A DNA stretch of 64,000 nucleotides from Candidatus Syntropharchaeum caldarium (GTDB taxonomy: Archaea; Halobacteriota; Syntropharchaeia; Syntropharchaeales; Syntropharchaeaceae), in NCBI GenBank assembly GCA_001766815.1, contig LYOS01000001.1, forward strand, positions 148,998 through 212,997. The letters run 5' to 3'. The position numbers and the translations under genes were made by a program. Below are positions 1-29,014 of the stretch, one piece after another (position 1 is the stretch's first letter; each line of letters starts with the position of its first letter). The notes beneath the pieces were generated by a model that saw nothing but the letters and a program-made list of their open reading frames with translations, had not been told where the DNA came from and made no database searches.

Positions 1-1023
1 CCGTGTGTTGCATACGGAAATGTATATGTGGGTTCATGGAACGGGGGGCACTATTACTGCTTGAATGACTCAACTGGAGAAATAAAATGGCAATTTCCTC
101 CAAAAGGTGAAAAGAAACTGGATCACGCACAATCAACACCAGCAGCACATAACGGAATGGTCTTCTTCGGTGATTTTACAGGCGGACCGAAATCAAAGGT
201 TTTTGCCGTTGATGGACTTACAGGTGAAGAGATATGGAATCAAACAGTTTCGTGGAGTGTCTGCGGCTCCGTTACGATTGCGCACAATAAGGTATACCTC
301 ATGACATATAATTTCTATGGTTCAGGAGAGTTTTATGCACTCAATGAAAATAACGGAAGCATTGTCTGGCAACATACGATTGCAAGGTCCGATTCTACAC
401 CGGCGCATGCGTATGGAAACATCTATGTCTGTGGTGGATGCCCAGGTTATGAGCGGTGTAGAACATACTGTCTGAATGATGCAGACGGAGGAAACGAGAC
501 CTGGAATGTGCCTGATTGGGGGATATGGACATATTCACCGATGGTTGCAGATAAGAAAGTATTTATTGGTAAAGCAGAGGGACCGGGGATGGACAGTATG
601 CTCCCAGCAGGGATGTCTGCTCGTAATGCCTTTACCGGAGAAGAGATATGGCGTTCAGATCTCGGCGGTGGTTCACCCGCGATTGTGCATGGGAGGGTAT
701 ATACCGTGGGGGGTGTTAATGCAACGGGCAGAGTTATCTGTTTCGGCTCTACAAACCAACCAGACCTCGAACTGAGTAATCTCACTACGGTTCCAAAGTC
801 AGATATCTATGTCGGTCAAAATGTTTCAATCAATGTGACACTCAGAAATATTGGCTCTGGTAACGCTTCTGCATTTAACGTTTCTTTACGAGTTAATGGT
901 GAGATAGAAGCGGAAAAAAGAATTGATGATGGACTTAATGTAAACGTTAGCATGCCTGTGAATTTCTCGTGGACTCCAGTAGAAGCTGGGGAGTATCTTA
1001 TCATCGTTGAAGCGGATTCGGAT
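1..1023. repeat. Copy A of an exact ~1.0 kb direct repeat (partner at 6282-7304); may extend upstream of the window
   Basis: Identical at every position compared by eye (1-60, 241-300, 481-540, 781-840, 961-1023 against offset +6281); first mismatch at 1024 vs 7305. Confidence 0.85.
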
Positions 1024-2130
1024 GATGAGATTGCTGAAACCGACGAGCTTAACAATACGTTGAGTGCGACCGTGGACGTGGTTGAAGCAGCAGGACCAAG
1101 TGTTACGGTTGATAGCCGTGATGTATCCCCTGGTGAGACGTTCACGATCAGTATAACCGTCGATCCGCAGGGTGAGGAGATTTACGGAGCACAGTATGAC
1201 CTTTACTTTGATCCAGCAATCTTGCAGGTTGTGAGCCAGACCGCGGGCGACTTCCTGACACAGGACGGTGCAAGCTCAATCGAAGTCGTGAACACGATCA
1301 ACAACACCCTTGGAAAGCTTGAGTACGGTGAGACACGGATGGGAGTGGAGAATGGCGTGACTCGGGCAGGCGTTCTCGCCACGATCGAATTCGAGGCTGT
1401 TGGAACCGGGTCAACCGGTCTCACGCTATCAAACGTGCTCTTAAGCGATCCAAGTGCACATGAGATTGGAGGAGTCGTGCTGAACGATGGAGCGGTCAAC
1501 GTAGCAGGGACGCCACCGCCGCCACCACCAGGTGGTGCGATCGTAACGATCCCTGACGTTGGAGCAACAGGAACGCTCACAGTCCCGATCAGAATCGAGA
1601 ACGTGACAGACGCAGGCGCAATCCATCTGACACTCACCTATGACCCTCGTGTTGTCATCGTATCAACTGCGTGCTGCAACTCAGACTTTGACACACTCTT
1701 TGCAAACATCGAGGATGCAGCAAGAGGATCTATTACCATCATCGCATACCAGACCCAAAACCCAGGTCTGAACGGCAATGTGCTCGTTGCAGACGTGACT
1801 TTCATGGCACTCGGCCCCATCGGATCATCGAGCACCCTTAACCTAGAGGTCACAACACTCACCGACGCAACACCAGAGTGCAACCCGATCCCCTACTCAG
1901 TCAGCAATGGAAGCTTCACGGTATTCTTAAACGGCGACGTGAACGGTGATGGCAGGGTCGATGCTGCAGACTGCATGTACCTTGCAAAACACCTGCTCGG
2001 GGTCTCAGGTTTTGAGACGATCGTTGAGGTTGCAGCAGATGTCAATGGTAACGGCGAGATCGAGGCATCAGACTGCATGTACCTTGCAAAGCATCTTGCA
2101 GGGATTGACGGATTTGAGGAGTTGAAGTAG
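1..2130 (+). CDS. Giant secreted surface protein, paralog 1 (5' end truncated by window edge): PQQ-like beta-propeller repeats, CARDB domain, two cohesin-like domains, PPPPPP linker, C-terminal dockerin
   Basis: Frame 1 is open from position 1 to TAG at 2128-2130. Repeated YxLNxxxGxxxWQ propeller-like motifs, CARDB-like NVSLRVNGE block, cohesin-like blocks (YDLYFDPAILQVV, LTLTYDPRVVIVS), dockerin duplicated loops DVNGDGRVDAADCMYLAKHLLG and DVNGNGEIEASDCMYLAKHLAG. Confidence 0.75.
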   Translation, partial: PCVAYGNVYVGSWNGGHYYCLNDSTGEIKWQFPPKGEKKLDHAQSTPAAHNGMVFFGDFTGGPKSKVFAVDGLTGEEIWNQTVSWSVCGSVTIAHNKVYLMTYNFYGSGEFYALNENNGSIVWQHTIARSDSTPAHAYGNIYVCGGCPGYERCRTYCLNDADGGNETWNVPDWGIWTYSPMVADKKVFIGKAEGPGMDSMLPAGMSARNAFTGEEIWRSDLGGGSPAIVHGRVYTVGGVNATGRVICFGSTNQPDLELSNLTTVPKSDIYVGQNVSINVTLRNIGSGNASAFNVSLRVNGEIEAEKRIDDGLNVNVSMPVNFSWTPVEAGEYLIIVEADSDDEIAETDELNNTLSATVDVVEAAGPSVTVDSRDVSPGETFTISITVDPQGEEIYGAQYDLYFDPAILQVVSQTAGDFLTQDGASSIEVVNTINNTLGKLEYGETRMGVENGVTRAGVLATIEFEAVGTGSTGLTLSNVLLSDPSAHEIGGVVLNDGAVNVAGTPPPPPPGGAIVTIPDVGATGTLTVPIRIENVTDAGAIHLTLTYDPRVVIVSTACCNSDFDTLFANIEDAARGSITIIAYQTQNPGLNGNVLVADVTFMALGPIGSSSTLNLEVTTLTDATPECNPIPYSVSNGSFTVFLNGDVNGDGRVDAADCMYLAKHLLGVSGFETIVEVAADVNGNGEIEASDCMYLAKHLAGIDGFEELK

Positions 2131-2138
2131 AATAAGAA

Positions 2139-5100
2139 ATGGTGAAATGTGTGAGGCGATTGATAGCGGTATTTTTAATCTCGTTATTTATATTCCCGTT
2201 GGTATCTGCAGATCTCAGAAAGGATCTCACAGATAACCTCCCTCTAAGTGTAAGATCTCCTTCTGGTACTGAGACCCTGATCTGCGGTTACCTGTTTGAG
2301 AGGGGATCTACAGGCAGTGTAAGGATCACAAACCTCAACACCAGTTTAAGCTGGGATGCAAGGCTACTTGAGTCAGAGCCAGACTTCTACTACCTCTATC
2401 TCGATGAAATTGAGCTTAAAGCAGGAGATATGCTCAGGCTCAACGCAACCTCAGGTGATGAATCGGTCGTATTAATTCATACCGTAAACCAGAGTGAGAT
2501 CGATGAGCATCTGGTGTGGCTTGATATCATCGAGGATCTTGCGATAACAGAGATCACAATACCAAACAGAATTACAAAAGATATCAACACCACTATCCAC
2601 GCCGTAATTGAGAATATTGGACTGATACCAGTCGTTGTACCCTTCAATATTACATTCAGCGTTGATGGAGAACTCATAACTACTACCTCTTTTACAGAAG
2701 TTCCTTTAAACGCCAGTGAGAACTTTACCGTAGAATTTTATTGGACTCCTCTGGAATCCGGGATACACAACATCACAATCACTGTGGATCCGAATCATGA
2801 AATTATATCAGAGACGAATGAATCGAATAATCGAATGAAGAAAAGCGTGTCTGTTGCTGAACTACCTTCGTTTTATGTGCCACTGGACTTTCCCACGATT
2901 CAAGATGCGGTGGATAATGTAACAATTAACGGAACCACGATTTATGTCGCAAGCGGCACGTATAACGAGAATATAATGATTCAAAAGCAGATCACACTTC
3001 TGGGAGCGGATATGAATGATACAATCATAGACGGAGGTGGGAACGATACATTAAGGCTTTTTGCGAATAATTGTGTCATCAGAGGTTTTTCGATAATTAA
3101 TGGGAGCACAGGTATAAAGATCGAATCCAATGGCAATAAAATCTTTGAAAATTGGATTTATAACAACTCCTGCGGCGTAAATATCACCGGATTAAATAAT
3201 ACCGTTTATCATAATAATCTGAATAATGTTCAGAACGGATTTGATACCGGTAATAGTTCGTGGGACGATGGAAGGGAAGGAAACTACTGGAGCGATTGTA
3301 CCGGCGATGATTTCGATCTCAATGGGATTGTAGACACGCCTTATGAATGCGGGTGGGTAACGGATCGATATCCTTTAGTTTCTCCATATGTACTGCACAG
3401 AGACCCGGCAATCGCGTATCTCACTGTCCCCACATCTATTTATGTGAATGAAACGAATACTATCTTTGTGGGCATTGCCAATTACGGCACTTCAGAAGTG
3501 GCAAGCAATCTCTCACTCAAACTCGGTGGCACTATTCTGAACATGACGATTTCTCTACCATATAAGAGCATAAACGCTGTTTATTTCTGCGTGACTCCGA
3601 ACCAGATGGGGACAATAAACCTAACAGCGGAGATAGAGGCATGCAATGAAGATTCAAATAGAGCAAACAACCGGATGAGCGTGAATGTTACGGTAATTCC
3701 TTCGCCTTTTAAGCGCCTTTACAATTTTGATAACGAAACAACTATGGCGGAATATTATAAATATCAACTTCCTGAAAGCAGAACGAATGCTCTGGATTAC
3801 TTAGCAATGCAGCAGAATTCTGACGGCGGCATCGGTCAGGGTGGCTATTCGACAGATCTGGCTATTATAGCGGTATCATCTGCTGGAGAGAATCCGCAGG
3901 AGTTTGCGAGACTGAATTCGTCGCTTACAGATTATTTAAAAGCGCATCCGCCTCAGCATGACCTGACTTTAATATCTCGCTATGTGCTTGCGATTATCGC
4001 TTCTGGTGAGAATCCGCGTGATTTTGGTGGTAAAAACTATCTTGCGATGATTCAATCATTCTTCGATGGAGAACAGTTTGGAATTGAGAAGAATATCGTG
4101 GATGATGCGTGGGCTGTGCTTGCACTTACCGGAGCAGGATATGGCAATGACACAGAAATTATGCGAACTGAAAGGAATTATATTCTCAGGTGTCAGAATG
4201 AGAGTGATGGCGGATGGCCGTATTTTGAGAATGGAACGAGCTCAATCGATGTAACTGCGATAGCATTAGAAGCTCTGGTTGCTTCTGGTATAGCTGTGGA
4301 TAATAGTTCGATACAGAATGGCACGAAATATTTGGAAAAAAATCTTGTGAAGAATCAATGGGAAGAGGGGATGGGGCAGACAGACCCACTGCCAGAATCC
4401 AATCTGAAAAATTATGCTCATTCAGTCCAGGCAATCGTTGCTGTTGGAGGGAATCCGATAGATGGAAGCTGGGATTATTCGCAGAGTGCAGCTACATACT
4501 ACGGGATTGAAAACCCATACAACCCGCTACTTCTGCTCTTGGGACTCGAAGAGAAGTCGGGCGATTTTGAAGGTGGATTCGCGTTCACATTTAAAGATTC
4601 TTATCCCGAACCTAAATGGACATCAATGGCACTCCCCTCGCTGTTCGCAAAGCCATATCCTTCGATGTGCACGTATAGCCGGGTGCTATCAGACATAAAG
4701 CCCATTCATATAGGGACACGGGCTTGCTACACCAATGTTACAAATATTATCAATGCAACAATCAAGAACAACGGCGGGATATTCAACGTGAGTCTTCTTG
4801 TGGATGGTGCCGAGGTTGACCGCGCGAGAATTGTGGAGACGAATTCAACTGCATTATCGCGGGTGGAATTCAGATGGCTGCCAGAGAAAGAAGGGGAATA
4901 TAACCTCACCGTTGTGGCAGATTCTGAGAATTCAATAGAAGAGAATAATGAGAGCAATAACTGCATCGGCCGCGTGGTCACTGTGACGAAGCCAGACCTG
5001 CACCCCAGGACAGAACTGCCAGCATTCTATGTCAATGTGACAAACAGAATAGAAACAGAAGTTTTAGGATACGGCGAGGGATTCAACGTATCGCTTCTTA

Positions 5101-8039
5101 TAAATGGAAGCGTTGTAGATAAAGCCGAGAATATCAGCTCTTATGGCTTTAATAAAACAACGTTATACTGGAAGCCAAACCAAACGGGTAACTACACTCT
5201 TAGACTCATCGCTGATTCGGAAAACGATGTATTTGAATCCGATGAGAAGAATAACACCATAGAAGAGAATGTCAGTGTAATACTGCCCGACCTATATCCT
5301 CAGAATATAAGCACTATGATACTGTACACCGATACCGAGAACATCATAGATGTCAGCATCAACGGCTCAGCAGAAGGATTTAACGCGACTTTATTTGCAA
5401 ACGGAACGATTGCAGATAAAATCGAGAACATTTCATCTTATAACGTGGCGAATATCAGTTTTTCGTGGAACCCCCTGCTGGCAGGTGTTTACAACCTCAC
5501 AGTGATGGTAGATGCTGATGATGAGATAGAAGAGACGAACGAAACGAACAACAATCTGAGTCGTATTGTAACCGTAGAGAATCGAGAAGCGCCATACATA
5601 AAACTACTCGCTCCGATAGGTGGTGAATGCTGGAGCGGTGTGCAGACGATAAAGTGGAGTGCAACCGACCCGAACGGCGATGAACTAATAATAAACATCA
5701 GCTACAGCCCGGATGCAGGAATAATGTGGCATCCAATTGCAAGCAATCTTGAGAACACAGGCTATTATAATTGGAGCACCGAGTACATGCTGGATGGATA
5801 TGATTATAAGGTAAAAGTAGAAGCATTTGATGGGAATTCTACCTCAGTGGATATCTCAAAAGATGTATTCACAATCTACAACAGGAGATCGTATGAGGGG
5901 GCACCAAGCTTCCATTATAATGCGGGTTTCTCACTCTCGGAAGCGCCGAATACGAATAAAACTGCGTGGATAACCGAAGATATTGGTGCATGCCCTTCCA
6001 CTTCTCTTATTGTTGCCGATGGTAAGGTCTTTGTCTACTGCTATGACAGTGTGAAGGCACTGGACGAATTAAATGGCAGCACAGACCTAAATGGCAGCAC
6101 AAAACCCATCTGGAGCACATCCATAGATAAGGCTGTTTATGGCTCGTGGGCGACTGCGGCATACTACGACGGATCGGTATTCATAGCTTCAGGAAATCAT
6201 GTTTACCGAATTAGTGCTAAAGATGGAAAGATAGAATGGAGGTTCCAATTCCCTGATGGGGGGTGCAGTGTGAATAGTGGTCCGTGTGTTGCATACGGAA
6301 ATGTATATGTGGGTTCATGGAACGGGGGGCACTATTACTGCTTGAATGACTCAACTGGAGAAATAAAATGGCAATTTCCTCCAAAAGGTGAAAAGAAACT
6401 GGATCACGCACAATCAACACCAGCAGCACATAACGGAATGGTCTTCTTCGGTGATTTTACAGGCGGACCGAAATCAAAGGTTTTTGCCGTTGATGGACTT
6501 ACAGGTGAAGAGATATGGAATCAAACAGTTTCGTGGAGTGTCTGCGGCTCCGTTACGATTGCGCACAATAAGGTATACCTCATGACATATAATTTCTATG
6601 GTTCAGGAGAGTTTTATGCACTCAATGAAAATAACGGAAGCATTGTCTGGCAACATACGATTGCAAGGTCCGATTCTACACCGGCGCATGCGTATGGAAA
6701 CATCTATGTCTGTGGTGGATGCCCAGGTTATGAGCGGTGTAGAACATACTGTCTGAATGATGCAGACGGAGGAAACGAGACCTGGAATGTGCCTGATTGG
6801 GGGATATGGACATATTCACCGATGGTTGCAGATAAGAAAGTATTTATTGGTAAAGCAGAGGGACCGGGGATGGACAGTATGCTCCCAGCAGGGATGTCTG
6901 CTCGTAATGCCTTTACCGGAGAAGAGATATGGCGTTCAGATCTCGGCGGTGGTTCACCCGCGATTGTGCATGGGAGGGTATATACCGTGGGGGGTGTTAA
7001 TGCAACGGGCAGAGTTATCTGTTTCGGCTCTACAAACCAACCAGACCTCGAACTGAGTAATCTCACTACGGTTCCAAAGTCAGATATCTATGTCGGTCAA
7101 AATGTTTCAATCAATGTGACACTCAGAAATATTGGCTCTGGTAACGCTTCTGCATTTAACGTTTCTTTACGAGTTAATGGTGAGATAGAAGCGGAAAAAA
7201 GAATTGATGATGGACTTAATGTAAACGTTAGCATGCCTGTGAATTTCTCGTGGACTCCAGTAGAAGCTGGGGAGTATCTTATCATCGTTGAAGCGGATTC
7301 GGATCACGAAATTACCGAGCAGGTTTCAATGCCAGACAATAATAAGGTTAGTAGACCATTAACGGTAAAAGAGTGGCTGGACTTGGCAGTGGAGGATATT
7401 GATTATTATCCAACGGAGGTTCACGTTGGGGATATTGTGAATATAACACCCTCTATTACGGCGGTAAACCTCGAAGGGGAAAGTGTTGGGGTTGAGTTTA
7501 AAGTTGATGATGAAAGTAAAGAGACAAAGAGAGGCGTAGTTAACGGAGAGCAGATAACTGTAAACTTCACATGGAATGCTTCGAGTCCTGGCGGGTATAA
7601 CCTGACGATAGTCGCCGATCCGGGTGGTGGGATAGATGAAGTTAACGAGACGAATAACGAGACGACAATAGTGGTGGAAGTGATGCCAACGCCAACACCA
7701 ACATCCACTCCAACTCCCGGCTTACCCCACGGTTATGGCGGTGGTGGAGGTGGTGGCTCCGGGATATTTGACTGGGGCGAGTTCTTCGGATCGGGTACAG
7801 GCAGTGAGGGCAATGAAACAGGTGAATTTACGATCCCGATAAATGAGACAGAATCTGTGATTGAAGAAGATTCATCGCGTGTGAATGGCTATCCAATGGG
7901 TGAGGAGACCGGAGGAAGTGCGGGCGGTGGAGGAAAGATCTCTTATATCTGGATCCTCATCGTAACCCTGACGCTTGCCCTTGTGATCTATGGTTACTGG
8001 CGAGAGTCGAGGTTTATCGGTAGGAGGAGGAGAAGATGA
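2139..8039 (+). CDS. Giant secreted, membrane-anchored surface protein, paralog 2 (1966 aa): signal peptide, multiple CARDB domains, parallel beta-helix, alpha/alpha-toroid (prenyltransferase-like) region, PQQ-like beta-propeller, C-terminal TP-rich and Gly-rich linker, TM helix, poly-Arg tail
   Basis: Single 5.9 kb ORF. N-terminal MVKCVRRLIAVFLISLFIFPLVSA signal-like segment; beta-helix motifs (TIYVASGTYNENIMIQKQITLLG, NNCVIRGFSIINGS); toroid-like repeats (QQNSDGGIGQGG, CQNESDGGWPYFENG); many NxS/T sequons; C-terminus TPTPTSTPTPG..GGGGGGGSG..ISYIWILIVTLTLALVIYGYWRESRFIGRRRRR. Confidence 0.8.
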   Translation: MVKCVRRLIAVFLISLFIFPLVSADLRKDLTDNLPLSVRSPSGTETLICGYLFERGSTGSVRITNLNTSLSWDARLLESEPDFYYLYLDEIELKAGDMLRLNATSGDESVVLIHTVNQSEIDEHLVWLDIIEDLAITEITIPNRITKDINTTIHAVIENIGLIPVVVPFNITFSVDGELITTTSFTEVPLNASENFTVEFYWTPLESGIHNITITVDPNHEIISETNESNNRMKKSVSVAELPSFYVPLDFPTIQDAVDNVTINGTTIYVASGTYNENIMIQKQITLLGADMNDTIIDGGGNDTLRLFANNCVIRGFSIINGSTGIKIESNGNKIFENWIYNNSCGVNITGLNNTVYHNNLNNVQNGFDTGNSSWDDGREGNYWSDCTGDDFDLNGIVDTPYECGWVTDRYPLVSPYVLHRDPAIAYLTVPTSIYVNETNTIFVGIANYGTSEVASNLSLKLGGTILNMTISLPYKSINAVYFCVTPNQMGTINLTAEIEACNEDSNRANNRMSVNVTVIPSPFKRLYNFDNETTMAEYYKYQLPESRTNALDYLAMQQNSDGGIGQGGYSTDLAIIAVSSAGENPQEFARLNSSLTDYLKAHPPQHDLTLISRYVLAIIASGENPRDFGGKNYLAMIQSFFDGEQFGIEKNIVDDAWAVLALTGAGYGNDTEIMRTERNYILRCQNESDGGWPYFENGTSSIDVTAIALEALVASGIAVDNSSIQNGTKYLEKNLVKNQWEEGMGQTDPLPESNLKNYAHSVQAIVAVGGNPIDGSWDYSQSAATYYGIENPYNPLLLLLGLEEKSGDFEGGFAFTFKDSYPEPKWTSMALPSLFAKPYPSMCTYSRVLSDIKPIHIGTRACYTNVTNIINATIKNNGGIFNVSLLVDGAEVDRARIVETNSTALSRVEFRWLPEKEGEYNLTVVADSENSIEENNESNNCIGRVVTVTKPDLHPRTELPAFYVNVTNRIETEVLGYGEGFNVSLLINGSVVDKAENISSYGFNKTTLYWKPNQTGNYTLRLIADSENDVFESDEKNNTIEENVSVILPDLYPQNISTMILYTDTENIIDVSINGSAEGFNATLFANGTIADKIENISSYNVANISFSWNPLLAGVYNLTVMVDADDEIEETNETNNNLSRIVTVENREAPYIKLLAPIGGECWSGVQTIKWSATDPNGDELIINISYSPDAGIMWHPIASNLENTGYYNWSTEYMLDGYDYKVKVEAFDGNSTSVDISKDVFTIYNRRSYEGAPSFHYNAGFSLSEAPNTNKTAWITEDIGACPSTSLIVADGKVFVYCYDSVKALDELNGSTDLNGSTKPIWSTSIDKAVYGSWATAAYYDGSVFIASGNHVYRISAKDGKIEWRFQFPDGGCSVNSGPCVAYGNVYVGSWNGGHYYCLNDSTGEIKWQFPPKGEKKLDHAQSTPAAHNGMVFFGDFTGGPKSKVFAVDGLTGEEIWNQTVSWSVCGSVTIAHNKVYLMTYNFYGSGEFYALNENNGSIVWQHTIARSDSTPAHAYGNIYVCGGCPGYERCRTYCLNDADGGNETWNVPDWGIWTYSPMVADKKVFIGKAEGPGMDSMLPAGMSARNAFTGEEIWRSDLGGGSPAIVHGRVYTVGGVNATGRVICFGSTNQPDLELSNLTTVPKSDIYVGQNVSINVTLRNIGSGNASAFNVSLRVNGEIEAEKRIDDGLNVNVSMPVNFSWTPVEAGEYLIIVEADSDHEITEQVSMPDNNKVSRPLTVKEWLDLAVEDIDYYPTEVHVGDIVNITPSITAVNLEGESVGVEFKVDDESKETKRGVVNGEQITVNFTWNASSPGGYNLTIVADPGGGIDEVNETNNETTIVVEVMPTPTPTSTPTPGLPHGYGGGGGGGSGIFDWGEFFGSGTGSEGNETGEFTIPINETESVIEEDSSRVNGYPMGEETGGSAGGGGKISYIWILIVTLTLALVIYGYWRESRFIGRRRRR
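6282..7304. repeat. Copy B of the exact ~1.0 kb direct repeat (partner at 1-1023), inside giant protein paralog 2
   Basis: See copy A; encodes the same PQQ-propeller/CARDB block in both paralogs. Confidence 0.85.
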
Positions 8040-8074
8040 TGAGTATCGACAGGGAAGAGAACACCTGTAGCTCA

Positions 8075-8266
8075 TCAGTAAGCCTCGTCGTGATGAACGA
8101 GCCTGTCGAAGATGAGAACCCTGAGATTCTTGAAACGATGGATCATCTCCTCGTCACAGGCAGAAATCTGGTTTATCTTCATTTGAACTCTTCTAAAAAA
8201 TGCCATGTCTTTCTTTTTGATCTTTATCATCGTTCGTTTGAGTTCGTCGGAGATGCAGATCTTCAT
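8075..8266 (-). CDS. Small hypothetical protein, possible ribbon-helix-helix-like DNA-binding protein
   Basis: 63 aa ORF; N-terminal KICISDELKRTM resembles the strand-helix start of RHH proteins and parallels the adjacent upstream ORF; the + strand ORF across this region is Ser-rich low complexity. Confidence 0.3.
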   Translation of the reverse strand: MKICISDELKRTMIKIKKKDMAFFRRVQMKINQISACDEEMIHRFKNLRVLIFDRLVHHDEAY

Positions 8267-8571
8267 AATTCATTGCACCATTTATCGAACTCTTCCAGGC
8301 TCATGGGCTTTCTCTTACCGGATTCAAGTTCTTTCAATACCTCCTCTGTAGATCTAACGACTTCCTTAGCCAGAGAATCTTTGACCTCCTTCTCATCATC
8401 CGGTATTTCAGATATTTCAGCAATTTTCCTTCCCATCTCAAGTTCTTCTATATCATGTAATCTTTCAGAGATAGCTTTTAATGCTACTGCTGGCCAATCA
8501 ACCCAATCTATTCTGGACATTCGCTCCTTCAGCTTGTCAGGTATCACAACCTTTATCTTTGCCATTCCCAT
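8263..8571 (-). CDS. Small hypothetical protein, ribbon-helix-helix-like (putative transcriptional regulator)
   Basis: 102 aa charged helical protein; N-terminal KIKVVIPDKLKERMSRI resembles the RHH beta-strand/helix motif; 4-nt overlap with the next small ORF; divergent from the ExbB-like gene. Confidence 0.4.
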   Translation of the reverse strand: MGMAKIKVVIPDKLKERMSRIDWVDWPAVALKAISERLHDIEELEMGRKIAEISEIPDDEKEVKDSLAKEVVRSTEEVLKELESGKRKPMSLEEFDKWCNEL

Positions 8572-8594
8572 CGCCTATGGCTATATCGGTCATT

Positions 8595-8608
8595 CGTTTA
8601 TAAATAGC
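8595..8608. promoter_or_regulatory. TATA-like element in the divergent intergenic region between the RHH-like gene and the ExbB-like gene
   Basis: cgtttataaatagc; an AAGGAGG Shine-Dalgarno-like motif follows at 8648-8654, a few nt before the ATG at 8659. Confidence 0.3.
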
Positions 8609-8658
8609 TTCTCACAGATGGAGAACTCAACGTTTACTGTTAAACAAAGGAGGAAAAT

Positions 8659-9255
8659 ATGATAGATATATTTGCAACGCTCCAGTCATCGATATACTAC
8701 ATCTCAACATACCTTCTGTATCCAGTGATCATTGCACTGCTTATCTGTGTTGGCTTCATCCTCGTTGACACAGGGTCTTTTCTCTACGAGATATACAGAA
8801 GAAAGAGGTTACACTTTGAGTTTGAGGATGAAGTTATCTCAGGCAGGTTTGTTGCGCTATTCATGAAAGAGCTTGAGCACATGGATCATGAAGATAGATA
8901 CTTTGATCTCAAGCTCCAGAAGCTCCTGAATGATATGGAGTATCTCATATCAAAGCGGCTTGAGCTGACGAAGCTCATATCAAGGATTGGTCCCATGTTC
9001 GGTCTTATGGGAACTTTAATCCCGATGGGACCTGCTTTGATAGGGCTTACTCACGGTGACATCGAGACCCTTGCAGATAACCTCATCATCGCATTCGGGA
9101 CAACAGTCGTGGGGCTTCTGGTCGGTGCGGTATCTTACTCGATCGCGATGGTCAGAACGCGCTGGTATGATCAGGAGATGGATGATATGGAGTTTGTATG
9201 TGAGATTGTGACGGGAGGTAGTCAGGATGAAATACATGAAGAAGAGAAGAGGTAA
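8659..9255 (+). CDS. MotA/TolQ/ExbB family proton-channel protein
   Basis: Signature region IGPMFGLMGTLIPMGPALIGLTHGDIETLADNLIIAFGTTVVGLLVGAVSYSIAMVRTRW matches the TolQ/ExbB conserved core; N-terminal TM helix. Confidence 0.7.
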   Translation: MIDIFATLQSSIYYISTYLLYPVIIALLICVGFILVDTGSFLYEIYRRKRLHFEFEDEVISGRFVALFMKELEHMDHEDRYFDLKLQKLLNDMEYLISKRLELTKLISRIGPMFGLMGTLIPMGPALIGLTHGDIETLADNLIIAFGTTVVGLLVGAVSYSIAMVRTRWYDQEMDDMEFVCEIVTGGSQDEIHEEEKR

Positions 9256-9571
9256 GAAGAAGCGATCCTTTGAGGAGGATCCGATGAGTGGTGTTGCAAA
9301 TCTATTCGATGTTGCGATGGTCTTTGCGGTTGCGCTTCTGATAGCGCTTGTATCTTCCTACCATATTCAGGAGCTTCTTGATCCGACCAGGGATATCACA
9401 ATCGTCAAGAACCCTGGACAGCCTGATATGCAGGTCATCGTGAAGGAGGGGAAGGAGATAAAGACGCTGAATGTGACAGAGGAGATGAGTGAAGTTGAGA
9501 TTGCAGGAACTGTTGGAACGATCTACAGGACACCGGATGGTGGAATGGTATATGTGCCTGAGGGTGGATGA
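9227..9571 (+). CDS. ExbD/TolR-like single-pass membrane protein (DUF2149-like partner of archaeal MotA/ExbB homologs)
   Basis: Basic N-terminus then TM helix ANLFDVAMVFAVALLIALV with an embedded Asp, as in ExbD/TolR/MotB; overlaps the ExbB-like gene (start may be 9236). Confidence 0.5.
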   Translation: MKYMKKRRGKKKRSFEEDPMSGVANLFDVAMVFAVALLIALVSSYHIQELLDPTRDITIVKNPGQPDMQVIVKEGKEIKTLNVTEEMSEVEIAGTVGTIYRTPDGGMVYVPEGG

Positions 9572-15756: not shown

Positions 15757-17088
15757 ATGGTAGTTCATGTATCACCCGACTCACTTGATTGGATCACTGG
15801 TGTGCGGGTTTATCTCACAGATGGGCAGGGTATAGGTGGAATAATAAAAGCAGAGCCCGAGGATTTTATTGTCGAAGAGCTATCGGAGTCAGATACAGGA
15901 GAGGAGGGTAACTATCTCATCCTTGATCTCGAGAAGCGTGACTGGGAGATGCACAACCTTGTGAGGGTAATCTCTCGGATACTTGGGATCAGCAGAAGAC
16001 GGATCAACTGGGCAGGAACGAAGGACAAGCGAGCGGTCACGAAACAGCGAATCAGTATCTGGAAGATCGATGCAAGCGAGATCGAACGCATCAGGCTAAA
16101 TGGTGTTAAACTCAATGTGGTCGGCAGATCACAGAAAAAAATTGCAATCGGGGATTTATATGCCAATCAATTTGAGATAATCGTGAGAGAGGTTAATTCA
16201 ACAGGCAAAGAGGTTGAAAATAGCCTTATACAGATACAGAGTGAGATAAAAGCGCACGGGGGTGTCATAAACTACTTTGGTAATCAACGTTTCGGTGTAC
16301 AGCGTCCGATAAACCACAGAATAGGGGAACTTCTCATAAAAGGTGAGTTTGAGGACGCGGCATATCTACTTCTCACAGCCACCTTTGGACGTGAGGACGA
16401 GGAGGTCGAAGAGGTGAGGCGGTTCATTTATACCACGGGCGACTTCAAACGGGCGGTTGAGCTTATGCCAAAGGGACTGCATCTCGAACGGACGATACTC
16501 CATGCACTCATCAATAAACCTGATGACTATCTCGGTGCTTTCCTCACACTCCCAAAACAACTCTACAAGATTTTCATCCATGCTTACCAGTCATACATCT
16601 TCAATCGGATTGTTTCTGCAAGGATGGAGGAAGGACTTGGGTTGAATGAGGCAGAAGAGGGAGATATAGTCTGCTTCAGAAATAAGCATGGTTTTGCTGA
16701 TGTCAGGCACTGGCAGGTGGTGAGATCCCATGAGGTTGCGGGAATCAACGACCTTATAGCACGAGGACGTGCATTTGTAACTGCCCCACTCATTGGCTTT
16801 GAGACCGAGATTGCCGGCGGCAGAGAGGGGGAGATAGAACACAAAATCCTTGAATCATGTAAAATTGAGCCCGAAGACTTCAGAATGGATGAAGTTGAAG
16901 CGCTTGCATCAGGGGGCATGAGACGGGAGATAAAACTTCCGGTGGATCCATCATTTGAGGTTCTTGGGGATCGGATGGTTAAGTTTGCATTCGTCCTGCC
17001 AAAAGGGGGGTATGCAACGATAGTGCTTCGAGAGTTTATGAAGACGTGTGATACGCCGGGAAAGGGATTTGAACCCTTGAGGGGATAA
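15757..17088 (+). CDS. truD: tRNA pseudouridine(13) synthase TruD
   Basis: EDFIVEE and GTKDKRAVTKQ motifs; start placed at the first ATG after the upstream gene (the track ORF extends further 5'). Confidence 0.8.
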   Translation: MVVHVSPDSLDWITGVRVYLTDGQGIGGIIKAEPEDFIVEELSESDTGEEGNYLILDLEKRDWEMHNLVRVISRILGISRRRINWAGTKDKRAVTKQRISIWKIDASEIERIRLNGVKLNVVGRSQKKIAIGDLYANQFEIIVREVNSTGKEVENSLIQIQSEIKAHGGVINYFGNQRFGVQRPINHRIGELLIKGEFEDAAYLLLTATFGREDEEVEEVRRFIYTTGDFKRAVELMPKGLHLERTILHALINKPDDYLGAFLTLPKQLYKIFIHAYQSYIFNRIVSARMEEGLGLNEAEEGDIVCFRNKHGFADVRHWQVVRSHEVAGINDLIARGRAFVTAPLIGFETEIAGGREGEIEHKILESCKIEPEDFRMDEVEALASGGMRREIKLPVDPSFEVLGDRMVKFAFVLPKGGYATIVLREFMKTCDTPGKGFEPLRG

Positions 17089-17171
17089 TCCCCACAGGCT
17101 AACTGGATTTTAATTCCTATCAGAACAAAAGTACTCTCCAGGCCTGCGCCTTACCGCTCGACCATCCCGGC
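17054..17171 (-). tRNA. tRNA-Ser (anticodon GGA) with a ~34-35 nt intron in the anticodon loop
   Basis: Reverse complement gives 7-bp acceptor stem GCCGGGA/TCCCGGC, discriminator G, anticodon stem CAGGC/GCCTG, loop CTGGAGA, long variable arm GGGG-ATTA-CCCC, T-arm AAGGG-TTCAAAT-CCCTT; intron 3' end pairs with the anticodon region (bulge-helix-bulge-like). Folded by eye only. Confidence 0.55.
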
Positions 17172-28942: not shown

Positions 28943-29014
28943 TGCGCCGACCGGGATTCGAACCCGAGTTTGAGGCTTGGCAAGCCTCGGTGATAACCGC
29001 TACACTATCGGCGC
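28943..29014 (-). tRNA. tRNA-Gly (anticodon GCC)
   Basis: 72 nt cloverleaf on the reverse complement: acceptor GCGCCGA/TCGGCGC, anticodon stem GAGGC/GCCTC with loop TTGCCAA, T-arm TCGGG-TTCGAAT-CCCGG, discriminator A; no encoded CCA. Confidence 0.85.

Follow-up and report, generated by a model that had tools for sequence, protein, structure and literature searches.

The window analysed here, a 64-kb stretch of a 491,986-bp contig of Candidatus Syntrophoarchaeum caldarius, opens on the plus strand with two tandem genes for giant surface proteins: a partial open reading frame (ORF) at 1-2130, which is cut by the window start and ends in cohesin and dockerin domains, and a complete ORF at 2139-8039, hereafter gene 2, which ends in a transmembrane (TM) anchor. 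Both carry, in frame, one copy of a long exact repeat. A position-by-position comparison of 1-1023 with 6282-7304 returned 0 mismatches at 1,023 positions, in agreement with the initial annotation and with none of the scattered mismatches by which an old duplication would be recognized, and a match of this kind cannot have arisen by chance. The exact run starting at window position 1 is 1,023 nucleotides (nt) long and no longer; identity is 34/50 in the next 50-nt block, 23 positions of which are inside the repeat, and 7-20/50 in later blocks, a random level, so that the divergence of the two genes into a cohesin/dockerin end and a linker/TM end is as abrupt as had been described. A repeat search of the window recovered the same pair at a spacing of 6,281 nt, displayed as 300-nt copies (1-300 = 6282-6581), the full 1,023-nt extent being derived from the direct comparison. 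No other repeat of at least 40 nt was found in the 64-kb window except a duplication of 81 nt inside the dockerin (1936-2016 and 2038-2118, 72% identity), encoding DVNGDGRVD and DVNGNGEIE.

Since the left end of copy 1 coincides with the window edge, the 1,023 nt show only the 3' end of a longer repeat. A protein search matched gene 2 to OFV68504.1 (100%/100%; 1,966 amino acids, aa), deposited as "membrane protein containing APHP domain protein" of the same organism, whose 90% cluster has a single other member, OFV68503.1 (2,090 aa), located on the same contig. The latter is the gene cut by the window start, called the hybrid gene below. Its length had been predicted beforehand from the 6,281-nt spacing as 1,722 + 368 = 2,090 codons, the same as the deposited length. 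The first 1,722 residues of OFV68503.1 are exactly those of gene 2; the hybrid consists of codons 1-1722 of gene 2, continued in the same frame by the 368 codons that close a cohesin-dockerin gene like OFV68502, and only the 3' modules set the two genes apart. Counted from the start codon, 88% of the giant gene is shared, which by protein identity makes the repeat at least 5,166 nt long. As had been suggested, it extends beyond the window start, and the size of ~1.0 kb given to it was too small, amino-acid identity extending 1,381 codons further.

The initial annotation had also read the match as a recent gene conversion or segmental duplication that swapped a PQQ-propeller/CARDB cassette between paralogues. 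A recent recombination or duplication is retained as the best reading, while the cassette is not, the shared part being nearly the whole giant gene. As far as the window goes, the genes have no more than the propeller end and a CARDB in common, and a cassette of ~1 kb moved between otherwise different giant paralogues would account for them; however, OFV68503.1 equals gene 2 from residue 1 to 1722 and the boundary lies inside a domain, which makes such a swap extremely unlikely. The 1,722-residue identity rules it out unless the deposited OFV68503.1 is itself wrong.

OFV68502.1, OFV68503.1 and OFV68504.1 are consecutive accessions, all on the one contig. OFV68502.1 has 639 aa arranged as cohesin-CARDB-cohesin-cohesin-dockerin; its last 83 residues are those of OFV68503.1 (0/83 differences), and the 285 residues before them differ from the hybrid at 33 positions and by a linker indel. 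The 1,023-nt match is thus probably the window-truncated end of a ~5.4-kb direct repeat in the chromosome, the duplicated block being most likely window 1879-7304 (5,426 nt) together with its upstream twin, and most likely comprising the 3' ~250 nt of a dockerin gene, an 8-nt spacer and 5,166 nt of the giant gene. Three points weigh against this account: identity over the other ~4.4 kb is known at the protein level only, the adjacency of OFV68502 is deduced from the order of accessions, and the two physical copies are known from assembled sequence alone. The features of the locus are as follows.

1..1023, + strand: last 1,023 nt of copy 1, with the end of the PQQ-like beta-propeller and most of CARDB (Pfam PQQ_2 at residues 5-191 and CARDB at residues 253-355 of the fragment)
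1021..1023, + strand: crossover interval GAT, the fusion junction inside CARDB; gene-2 type to the left, cohesin-gene type to the right (five-way alignment)
1024..1878, + strand: part specific to the hybrid tail, outside the exact repeat, with the last CARDB strand, a cohesin, a Pro-rich linker and a second cohesin (Pfam cohesin)
1879..2130, + strand: last 83 codons and stop of the hybrid, with the cohesin end and a type I dockerin (Dockerin_1, 52.4 bits); putative left part of copy 2, from the 83-residue identity to OFV68502.1
2131..2138, + strand: spacer AATAAGAA, 8 nt, from the hybrid stop to the gene 2 ATG, as read; probably duplicated with its flanking blocks
2139..8039, + strand: gene 2 (OFV68504.1, 1,966 aa), from ORF, translation, Pfam and the 100%/100% match
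2139..7304, + strand: duplicated body, codons 1-1722 of gene 2, copy 2, donor-type (identity to OFV68503.1; the related contig L012 is colinear across 7304)
6282..7304, + strand: part of copy 2 whose DNA identity was directly verified by sequence comparison
7305..8039, + strand: gene-2-specific 3' end, with the CARDB remainder, a further CARDB, a Pro/Thr linker, a Gly-rich stretch and the TM anchor (translation, Pfam)
8036..9571, + strand: genes downstream of gene 2, packed closely or overlapping: a 208-aa ORF, a MotA/ExbB-like gene (8659-9255) and a DUF2149 gene (9227-9571) (ORFs, Pfam)

In the fragment at 1-2130 Pfam recognized a PQQ-like propeller, CARDB, two cohesins and a type I dockerin. 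The cohesin family scored 88.7 bits over two stretches (cut-off 24.1) and Dockerin_1 scored above its cut-off of 22.9; the dockerin carries the duplicated calcium-binding segment, and by its domains the hybrid is therefore a cohesin-dockerin protein. The ORF at 2139-8039 matched Pfam models in six CARDB stretches, a propeller, and Ig-like and prenyltransferase-like regions. Its product reads, in order, as a signal peptide, CARDB repeats, a beta-helix, a prenyltransferase-like toroid, an Ig-like domain and the PQQ-like propeller, followed by two CARDB domains, the Pro/Thr linker, the Gly-rich stretch and a TM helix; in the translation the signal peptide is N-terminal and the C-terminal hydrophobic helix is followed by RRRRR.

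The fusion junction and its relatives

Homologues were searched in a collection of 5.8 billion sequences, the best 8,000 candidates by shared words being scored in each search. A close environmental relative represented by contigs L012 and L001 (93.5% nt identity over 5.4 kb) encodes a 1,980-aa orthologue of gene 2 that is colinear with it through the junction and into the linker/TM end, and the gene upstream of its giant gene is a different, non-dockerin one. In Candidatus Ethanoperedens GB37 and GB50 the orthologues of the cohesin gene have 626-635 aa and the layout cohesin-CARDB-cohesin-cohesin-dockerin, without propeller or PQQ domain, and stand directly upstream of a 3,170-aa homologue of the giant gene, followed by ExbB and DUF2149, a synteny like that of the window. 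No homologue of gene 2 carrying a cohesin or a dockerin was retrieved at E ≤ 1e-30, nor was any homologue of the upstream fragment that covered both of its halves. This comparison with related genomes, proposed along with the initial annotation, shows from the colinearity of L012/L001 that gene 2 has the ancestral layout and hence is of the donor type, and from the propeller-free orthologues of GB37 and GB50 that the cohesin gene, the acceptor, had no propeller originally. By the same reasoning the fused layout is the derived state, seen only in this genome among the sequences retrieved.

The junction was located in an alignment of both window copies, the GB37 and GB50 orthologues of the cohesin gene and the L012 orthologue of gene 2. 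To its right the hybrid agrees with the GB37 orthologue at 19/20 and 86/93 nt; to its left gene 2 agrees with the same orthologue at 16/20, 26/50 and 48/97 nt. The upstream gene is a clean chimera, of gene-2 type up to window position 1023 and of cohesin-gene type from 1024, and DNA similarity of the window to the GB37 orthologue begins at 1004 (blastn). The microhomology at the crossover amounts to ~3 nt (GAT, 1021-1023) and lies, in frame and in register, within the most conserved motif of CARDB; the junction peptide found solely in the hybrid contains ...EADSDDEIAETDELNNTLSATVDVVEAAGPSVTVDSR. A boundary of this kind inside CARDB is unlike classical homologous gene conversion between paralogues, to which the initial annotation had given room, and to judge from the alignment the right boundary is a microhomology join, guided or selected to keep the fold, and not a product of classical homologous recombination.

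The preservation of the fold was considered with AlphaFold2, run on the chimeric CARDB and the first cohesin with a shallow alignment. The chimeric CARDB was modelled as a seven-strand sandwich with a predicted local distance difference test score (pLDDT) of 75-88, its last strand, contributed by the tail side, having a pLDDT of 76, a prediction that is consistent with an intact sandwich without arguing strongly for it. Two points tell against this account of the junction: the estimate of microhomology uses GB37 and GB50 as stand-ins for the lost acceptor sequence, and the model is a moderate one, with a mean pLDDT of 65.6 and a junction loop at ~53.

Along gene 2, similarity to L012 is unevenly distributed. 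The linker, Gly-rich and TM end at 7495-8039 is the most variable part (82%, then 47% nt), as compared to 93-98% in the body, and the best conserved part is the propeller/CARDB region within the repeat (~98% nt). L001 (QMZY01000059.1), a contig of 5.6 kb that encodes the gene 2 orthologue and ends 58-67 nt past the position matching the repeat end, is binned as Candidatus Aenigmatarchaeota and is 99.9% identical to the Syntrophoarchaeum-like contig L012; its assignment is probably a binning error.

Recombination in the gene family and history of the fusion

Recombination is clearly active in this gene family. In Candidatus Ethanoperedens GB37 (LR991653.1), a closed genome sequenced with PacBio (PMC7175092), an array of four cohesin/dockerin genes is present twice, the 4,736 nt being exactly alike at loci separated by 660 kb, one at 7850-12585 of L003 and one on L002. 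Between the corresponding loci there are 84 differing sites in GB50 and 0 in GB37, which is consistent with a recent homogenisation in GB37; the GB50 genome is a partly reference-guided consensus (PMC7175092), with confirmation of its copy B from L029, a contig assembled de novo. A site-pattern test of concerted evolution in the GB37 and GB50 arrays was dropped, identical GB37 copies making grouping by genome inseparable from grouping by locus. Within OFV68502.1, 11 of the ~15 differences between its second cohesin (~290-425) and that of the hybrid match its own first cohesin (~38-170), which suggests intragenic conversion among its cohesin modules.

The same genes also point beyond the species. 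Window 1004-2542, which covers the tail of the hybrid, the spacer and ~400 nt at the start of gene 2, is 85.6-87.8% identical in nt to GB37 L003 11442-13012. At the protein level the hybrid tail is 91% identical to GB37, the rest of gene 2 33-38% and the neighbouring conserved genes 68-88%; gene 2 resembles GB37 over its first ~135 residues and from there on the close relative L012. These values suggest a lateral exchange with the different archaeal lineage Ethanoperedens, with a breakpoint near window position 2550, a proposal that we word cautiously because of the 68-88% baseline of the neighbouring genes. Syntrophoarchaeum and Ethanoperedens share the bacterial partner Candidatus Desulfofervidus. 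Transfer of cohesin/dockerin modules between clades has been noted among partner bacteria (PMC10553843). The G+C content of the cohesin-dockerin tail (1024-2130) is 53%, as compared to 44% in the giant-gene body (2139-7304), 46% in the whole window and 52% in the GB37 orthologue; the excess in the tail may reflect amino-acid content or a foreign origin.

Before a history is proposed for the two copies, their physical existence has to be weighed. The genome is a metagenome-assembled one from an enrichment in which the species accounts for ~2% of cells (PMC11543930), and short reads do not easily resolve an exact repeat of ~5.4 kb; a single body copy per genome might have been threaded twice through co-existing variants, or through a small conversion patch in the CARDB of the cohesin gene. 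We regard an assembly or strain-mixture artefact of this kind as quite unlikely. The contig does not end at the window start: it carries the full hybrid and OFV68502.1 as well and continues upstream for at least ~6 kb. The junction shares at most ~3 nt exactly, and 16/20 locally as judged from the orthologue proxies, too little for a mis-join in either de Bruijn-graph or overlap-based assembly. Moreover, the 855-nt tail-specific segment differs from the OFV68502 tail and is flanked on both sides by the repeat, so that a genome with these links holds two copies, and the usual signs of an artefact are absent, with no N's in the 64-kb window and both ORFs intact. An artefact at a contig end and a mis-join by a k-mer assembler are both unlikely; the former was rejected, since the full hybrid and OFV68502.1 are found on one contig, and so was an excised 6.3-kb circle, given the difference between the tail-specific segment and the OFV68502 tail.

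The two genes are 100% identical to each other in the repeat and 93-98% to the L012 orthologue, a pattern that recent duplication and gene conversion predict alike. Direct adjacent copies, a period of 6,281 nt and one novel junction are found, as in a simple tandem duplication, but near-identity over the whole unit is not, its first ~285 codons holding 33 differences and an indel and the other ~1,805 codons 0. Lower-identity homology flanking the tract, expected of gene conversion, is present on the left (88%, then 100% aa) and fails on the right (16/20 nt, then ~50%). One end of the tract is homologous, in the dockerin 3' ends, and the other has ~3 nt of microhomology. With 12% of residues differing in the first 855 nt of the unit and none over 5.4 kb, no simple event accounts for the map by itself.

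We consider it fairly probable that a recent ectopic copying or duplication made an anchor-swapped paralogue. In the history that we favour, one recent ectopic event would have copied the dockerin-gene 3' end, the spacer and the gene-2 body onto the gene upstream, overwriting the 5' portion of an older cohesin gene, a tandem paralogue of OFV68502. Its left end would fall where two cohesin-dockerin paralogues are truly homologous, in their 3' ends, and its right end would be an illegitimate join in the conserved CARDB motif, with ~3 nt of microhomology, resembling homology-facilitated illegitimate recombination or a synthesis-dependent repair finished by microhomology end-joining. One event is favoured because identity is perfect to the last base before homology ends, because the left end lies in homology, and because over the 285 residues of the tail the hybrid has 23 differences from the Ethanoperedens orthologues and OFV68502.1 has 36. 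The greater closeness of the hybrid tail to Ethanoperedens fits that tail as the original neighbour of the giant gene. Such a history presupposes that the ancestor had two cohesin genes in tandem, and it counts against it that Ethanoperedens has one such gene beside the giant gene.

An old tandem duplication of 6,281 nt, begun by an illegitimate CARDB join between OFV68502 and gene 2, then diverged and later homogenised by a recent conversion tract of ~5.4 kb, would dispense with the extra ancestral gene, in line with the single cohesin gene beside the giant gene of Ethanoperedens. The head-to-tail map with its 6,281-nt period fits it, tails that are 88% and then 100% identical look like the flank and the tract of a conversion, and mosaic conversion is seen elsewhere in the family, both in the second cohesin of OFV68502 and in the contrast between the GB37 and GB50 arrays. 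However, a conversion tract needing homology on both sides should have left old differences next to the junction, where identity is perfect to the last nt, and the hybrid tail is nearer to Ethanoperedens than to the OFV68502 tail (23 vs. 33 differences), which is unexpected if it was copied from OFV68502. We hold this two-stage origin to be unlikely. A recent tandem duplication followed by the replacement of one tail is an alternative that yields the same map.

The event belongs to a known class, segmental duplication or ectopic copying with gene fusion, and is ordinary as such; what is new is the specific layout and the cleanly mapped junction, the domains and the tail being part of the known archaeal cohesin-dockerin repertoire, and no new kind of mechanism is opened. 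Gene amplification in bacteria proceeds by segmental tandem duplication and fusion through illegitimate, microhomology-mediated recombination. The locus shares with it the head-to-tail geometry, the single novel junction at a microhomology of a few nt and the in-frame fusion, and departs from a simple bacterial tandem duplication in that the first ~855 nt of the unit are not identical between copies (12% aa differences). Homology-facilitated illegitimate recombination was reportedly described by de Vries and Wackernagel in 2002 for foreign DNA in transforming bacteria, with one homologous anchor and a join at 3-10 nt of microhomology; here too one end of the tract lies in real homology and the other at ~3 nt of microhomology, but the copying would have taken place between adjacent genes of a single archaeal chromosome. 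The 4,736-nt repeat of GB37 (Candidatus Ethanoperedens thermophilum) is likewise an exact multi-kb repeat in the same gene family, with its right boundary 13 nt before the stop of the cohesin-gene orthologue; unlike in the window, four whole genes are copied there between loci 660 kb apart and no fusion with a giant gene results.

Anchoring of the two proteins and neighbouring genes

The domain content points to one ectodomain of 1,722 residues that would be made in two forms, one with a C-terminal membrane helix and one with two cohesins and a dockerin. By analogy with known cohesin-dockerin proteins, the dockerin form may be secreted and docked onto cohesin-bearing proteins, itself recruiting dockerin proteins through its two cohesins; it weighs against this picture that alternative anchoring is read from domain content alone. 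Proteins of this type are abundant and variable in anaerobic methanotrophic archaea (ANME) and related archaea, where their proposed roles are attachment of proteins to the cell surface or contact with bacterial partners (PMC9012536; PMC10553843), and archaeal cohesin-dockerin pairs do bind in other species (cited in PMC9012536).

With the archaeal proteins of this repertoire, described on the model of bacterial cellulosome scaffoldins (Chadwick et al. 2022, PMC9012536), the hybrid shares multiple cohesins with a dockerin in a scaffoldin-like layout. Domain content varies between close relatives in ANME, as it does here, and beta-propeller proteins with cohesin or dockerin are present in neighbouring genomes. 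Unlike that repertoire, the hybrid joins a whole, otherwise membrane-anchored ectodomain of 1,722 residues to a cohesin-cohesin-dockerin tail, a combination absent from the other sequences retrieved; no link to polysaccharide degradation is implied.

Under the favoured history, a single recombination would have turned a membrane-anchored giant ectodomain into a dockerin-tethered, cohesin-bearing form. The locus would thus offer a clean, datable case of how new layouts arise in the cohesin-dockerin surface proteins of syntrophic alkane-oxidising archaea, and the hybrid and gene 2 a natural anchor-swap pair for studying the part of the anchor in consortium formation. As the first 1,722 residues of OFV68503.1 and OFV68504.1 are indistinguishable, transcripts and peptides can be counted unambiguously for either one only within its last 368 or 244 residues, respectively, and the locus is prone to collapse or break in short-read assemblies, a risk of which the initial annotation had reasonably warned. 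A further reading, which we regard as very unlikely, takes the 5.4-kb repeats as a reversible copy-number switch tuning the anchored against the dockerin-tethered adhesin, and the tail as a partner-attachment module passed between thermophilic archaea that oxidise alkanes; the 6.3-kb unit would then be deleted or amplified by homologous recombination of one repeat copy with the other, in a possibly polyploid archaeon.

Downstream, the 208-aa ORF that overlaps the end of gene 2 has no Pfam match. The presence of an ExbB-like channel beside a giant archaeal surface protein is unexplained, and the order giant gene, ExbB, DUF2149 is kept in Ethanoperedens GB50. Elsewhere in the window a tRNA match of 118 nt lies on the minus strand at 17054-17171, its length suggesting an intron-containing archaeal tRNA, and an ordinary tRNA is found at 28943-29014.

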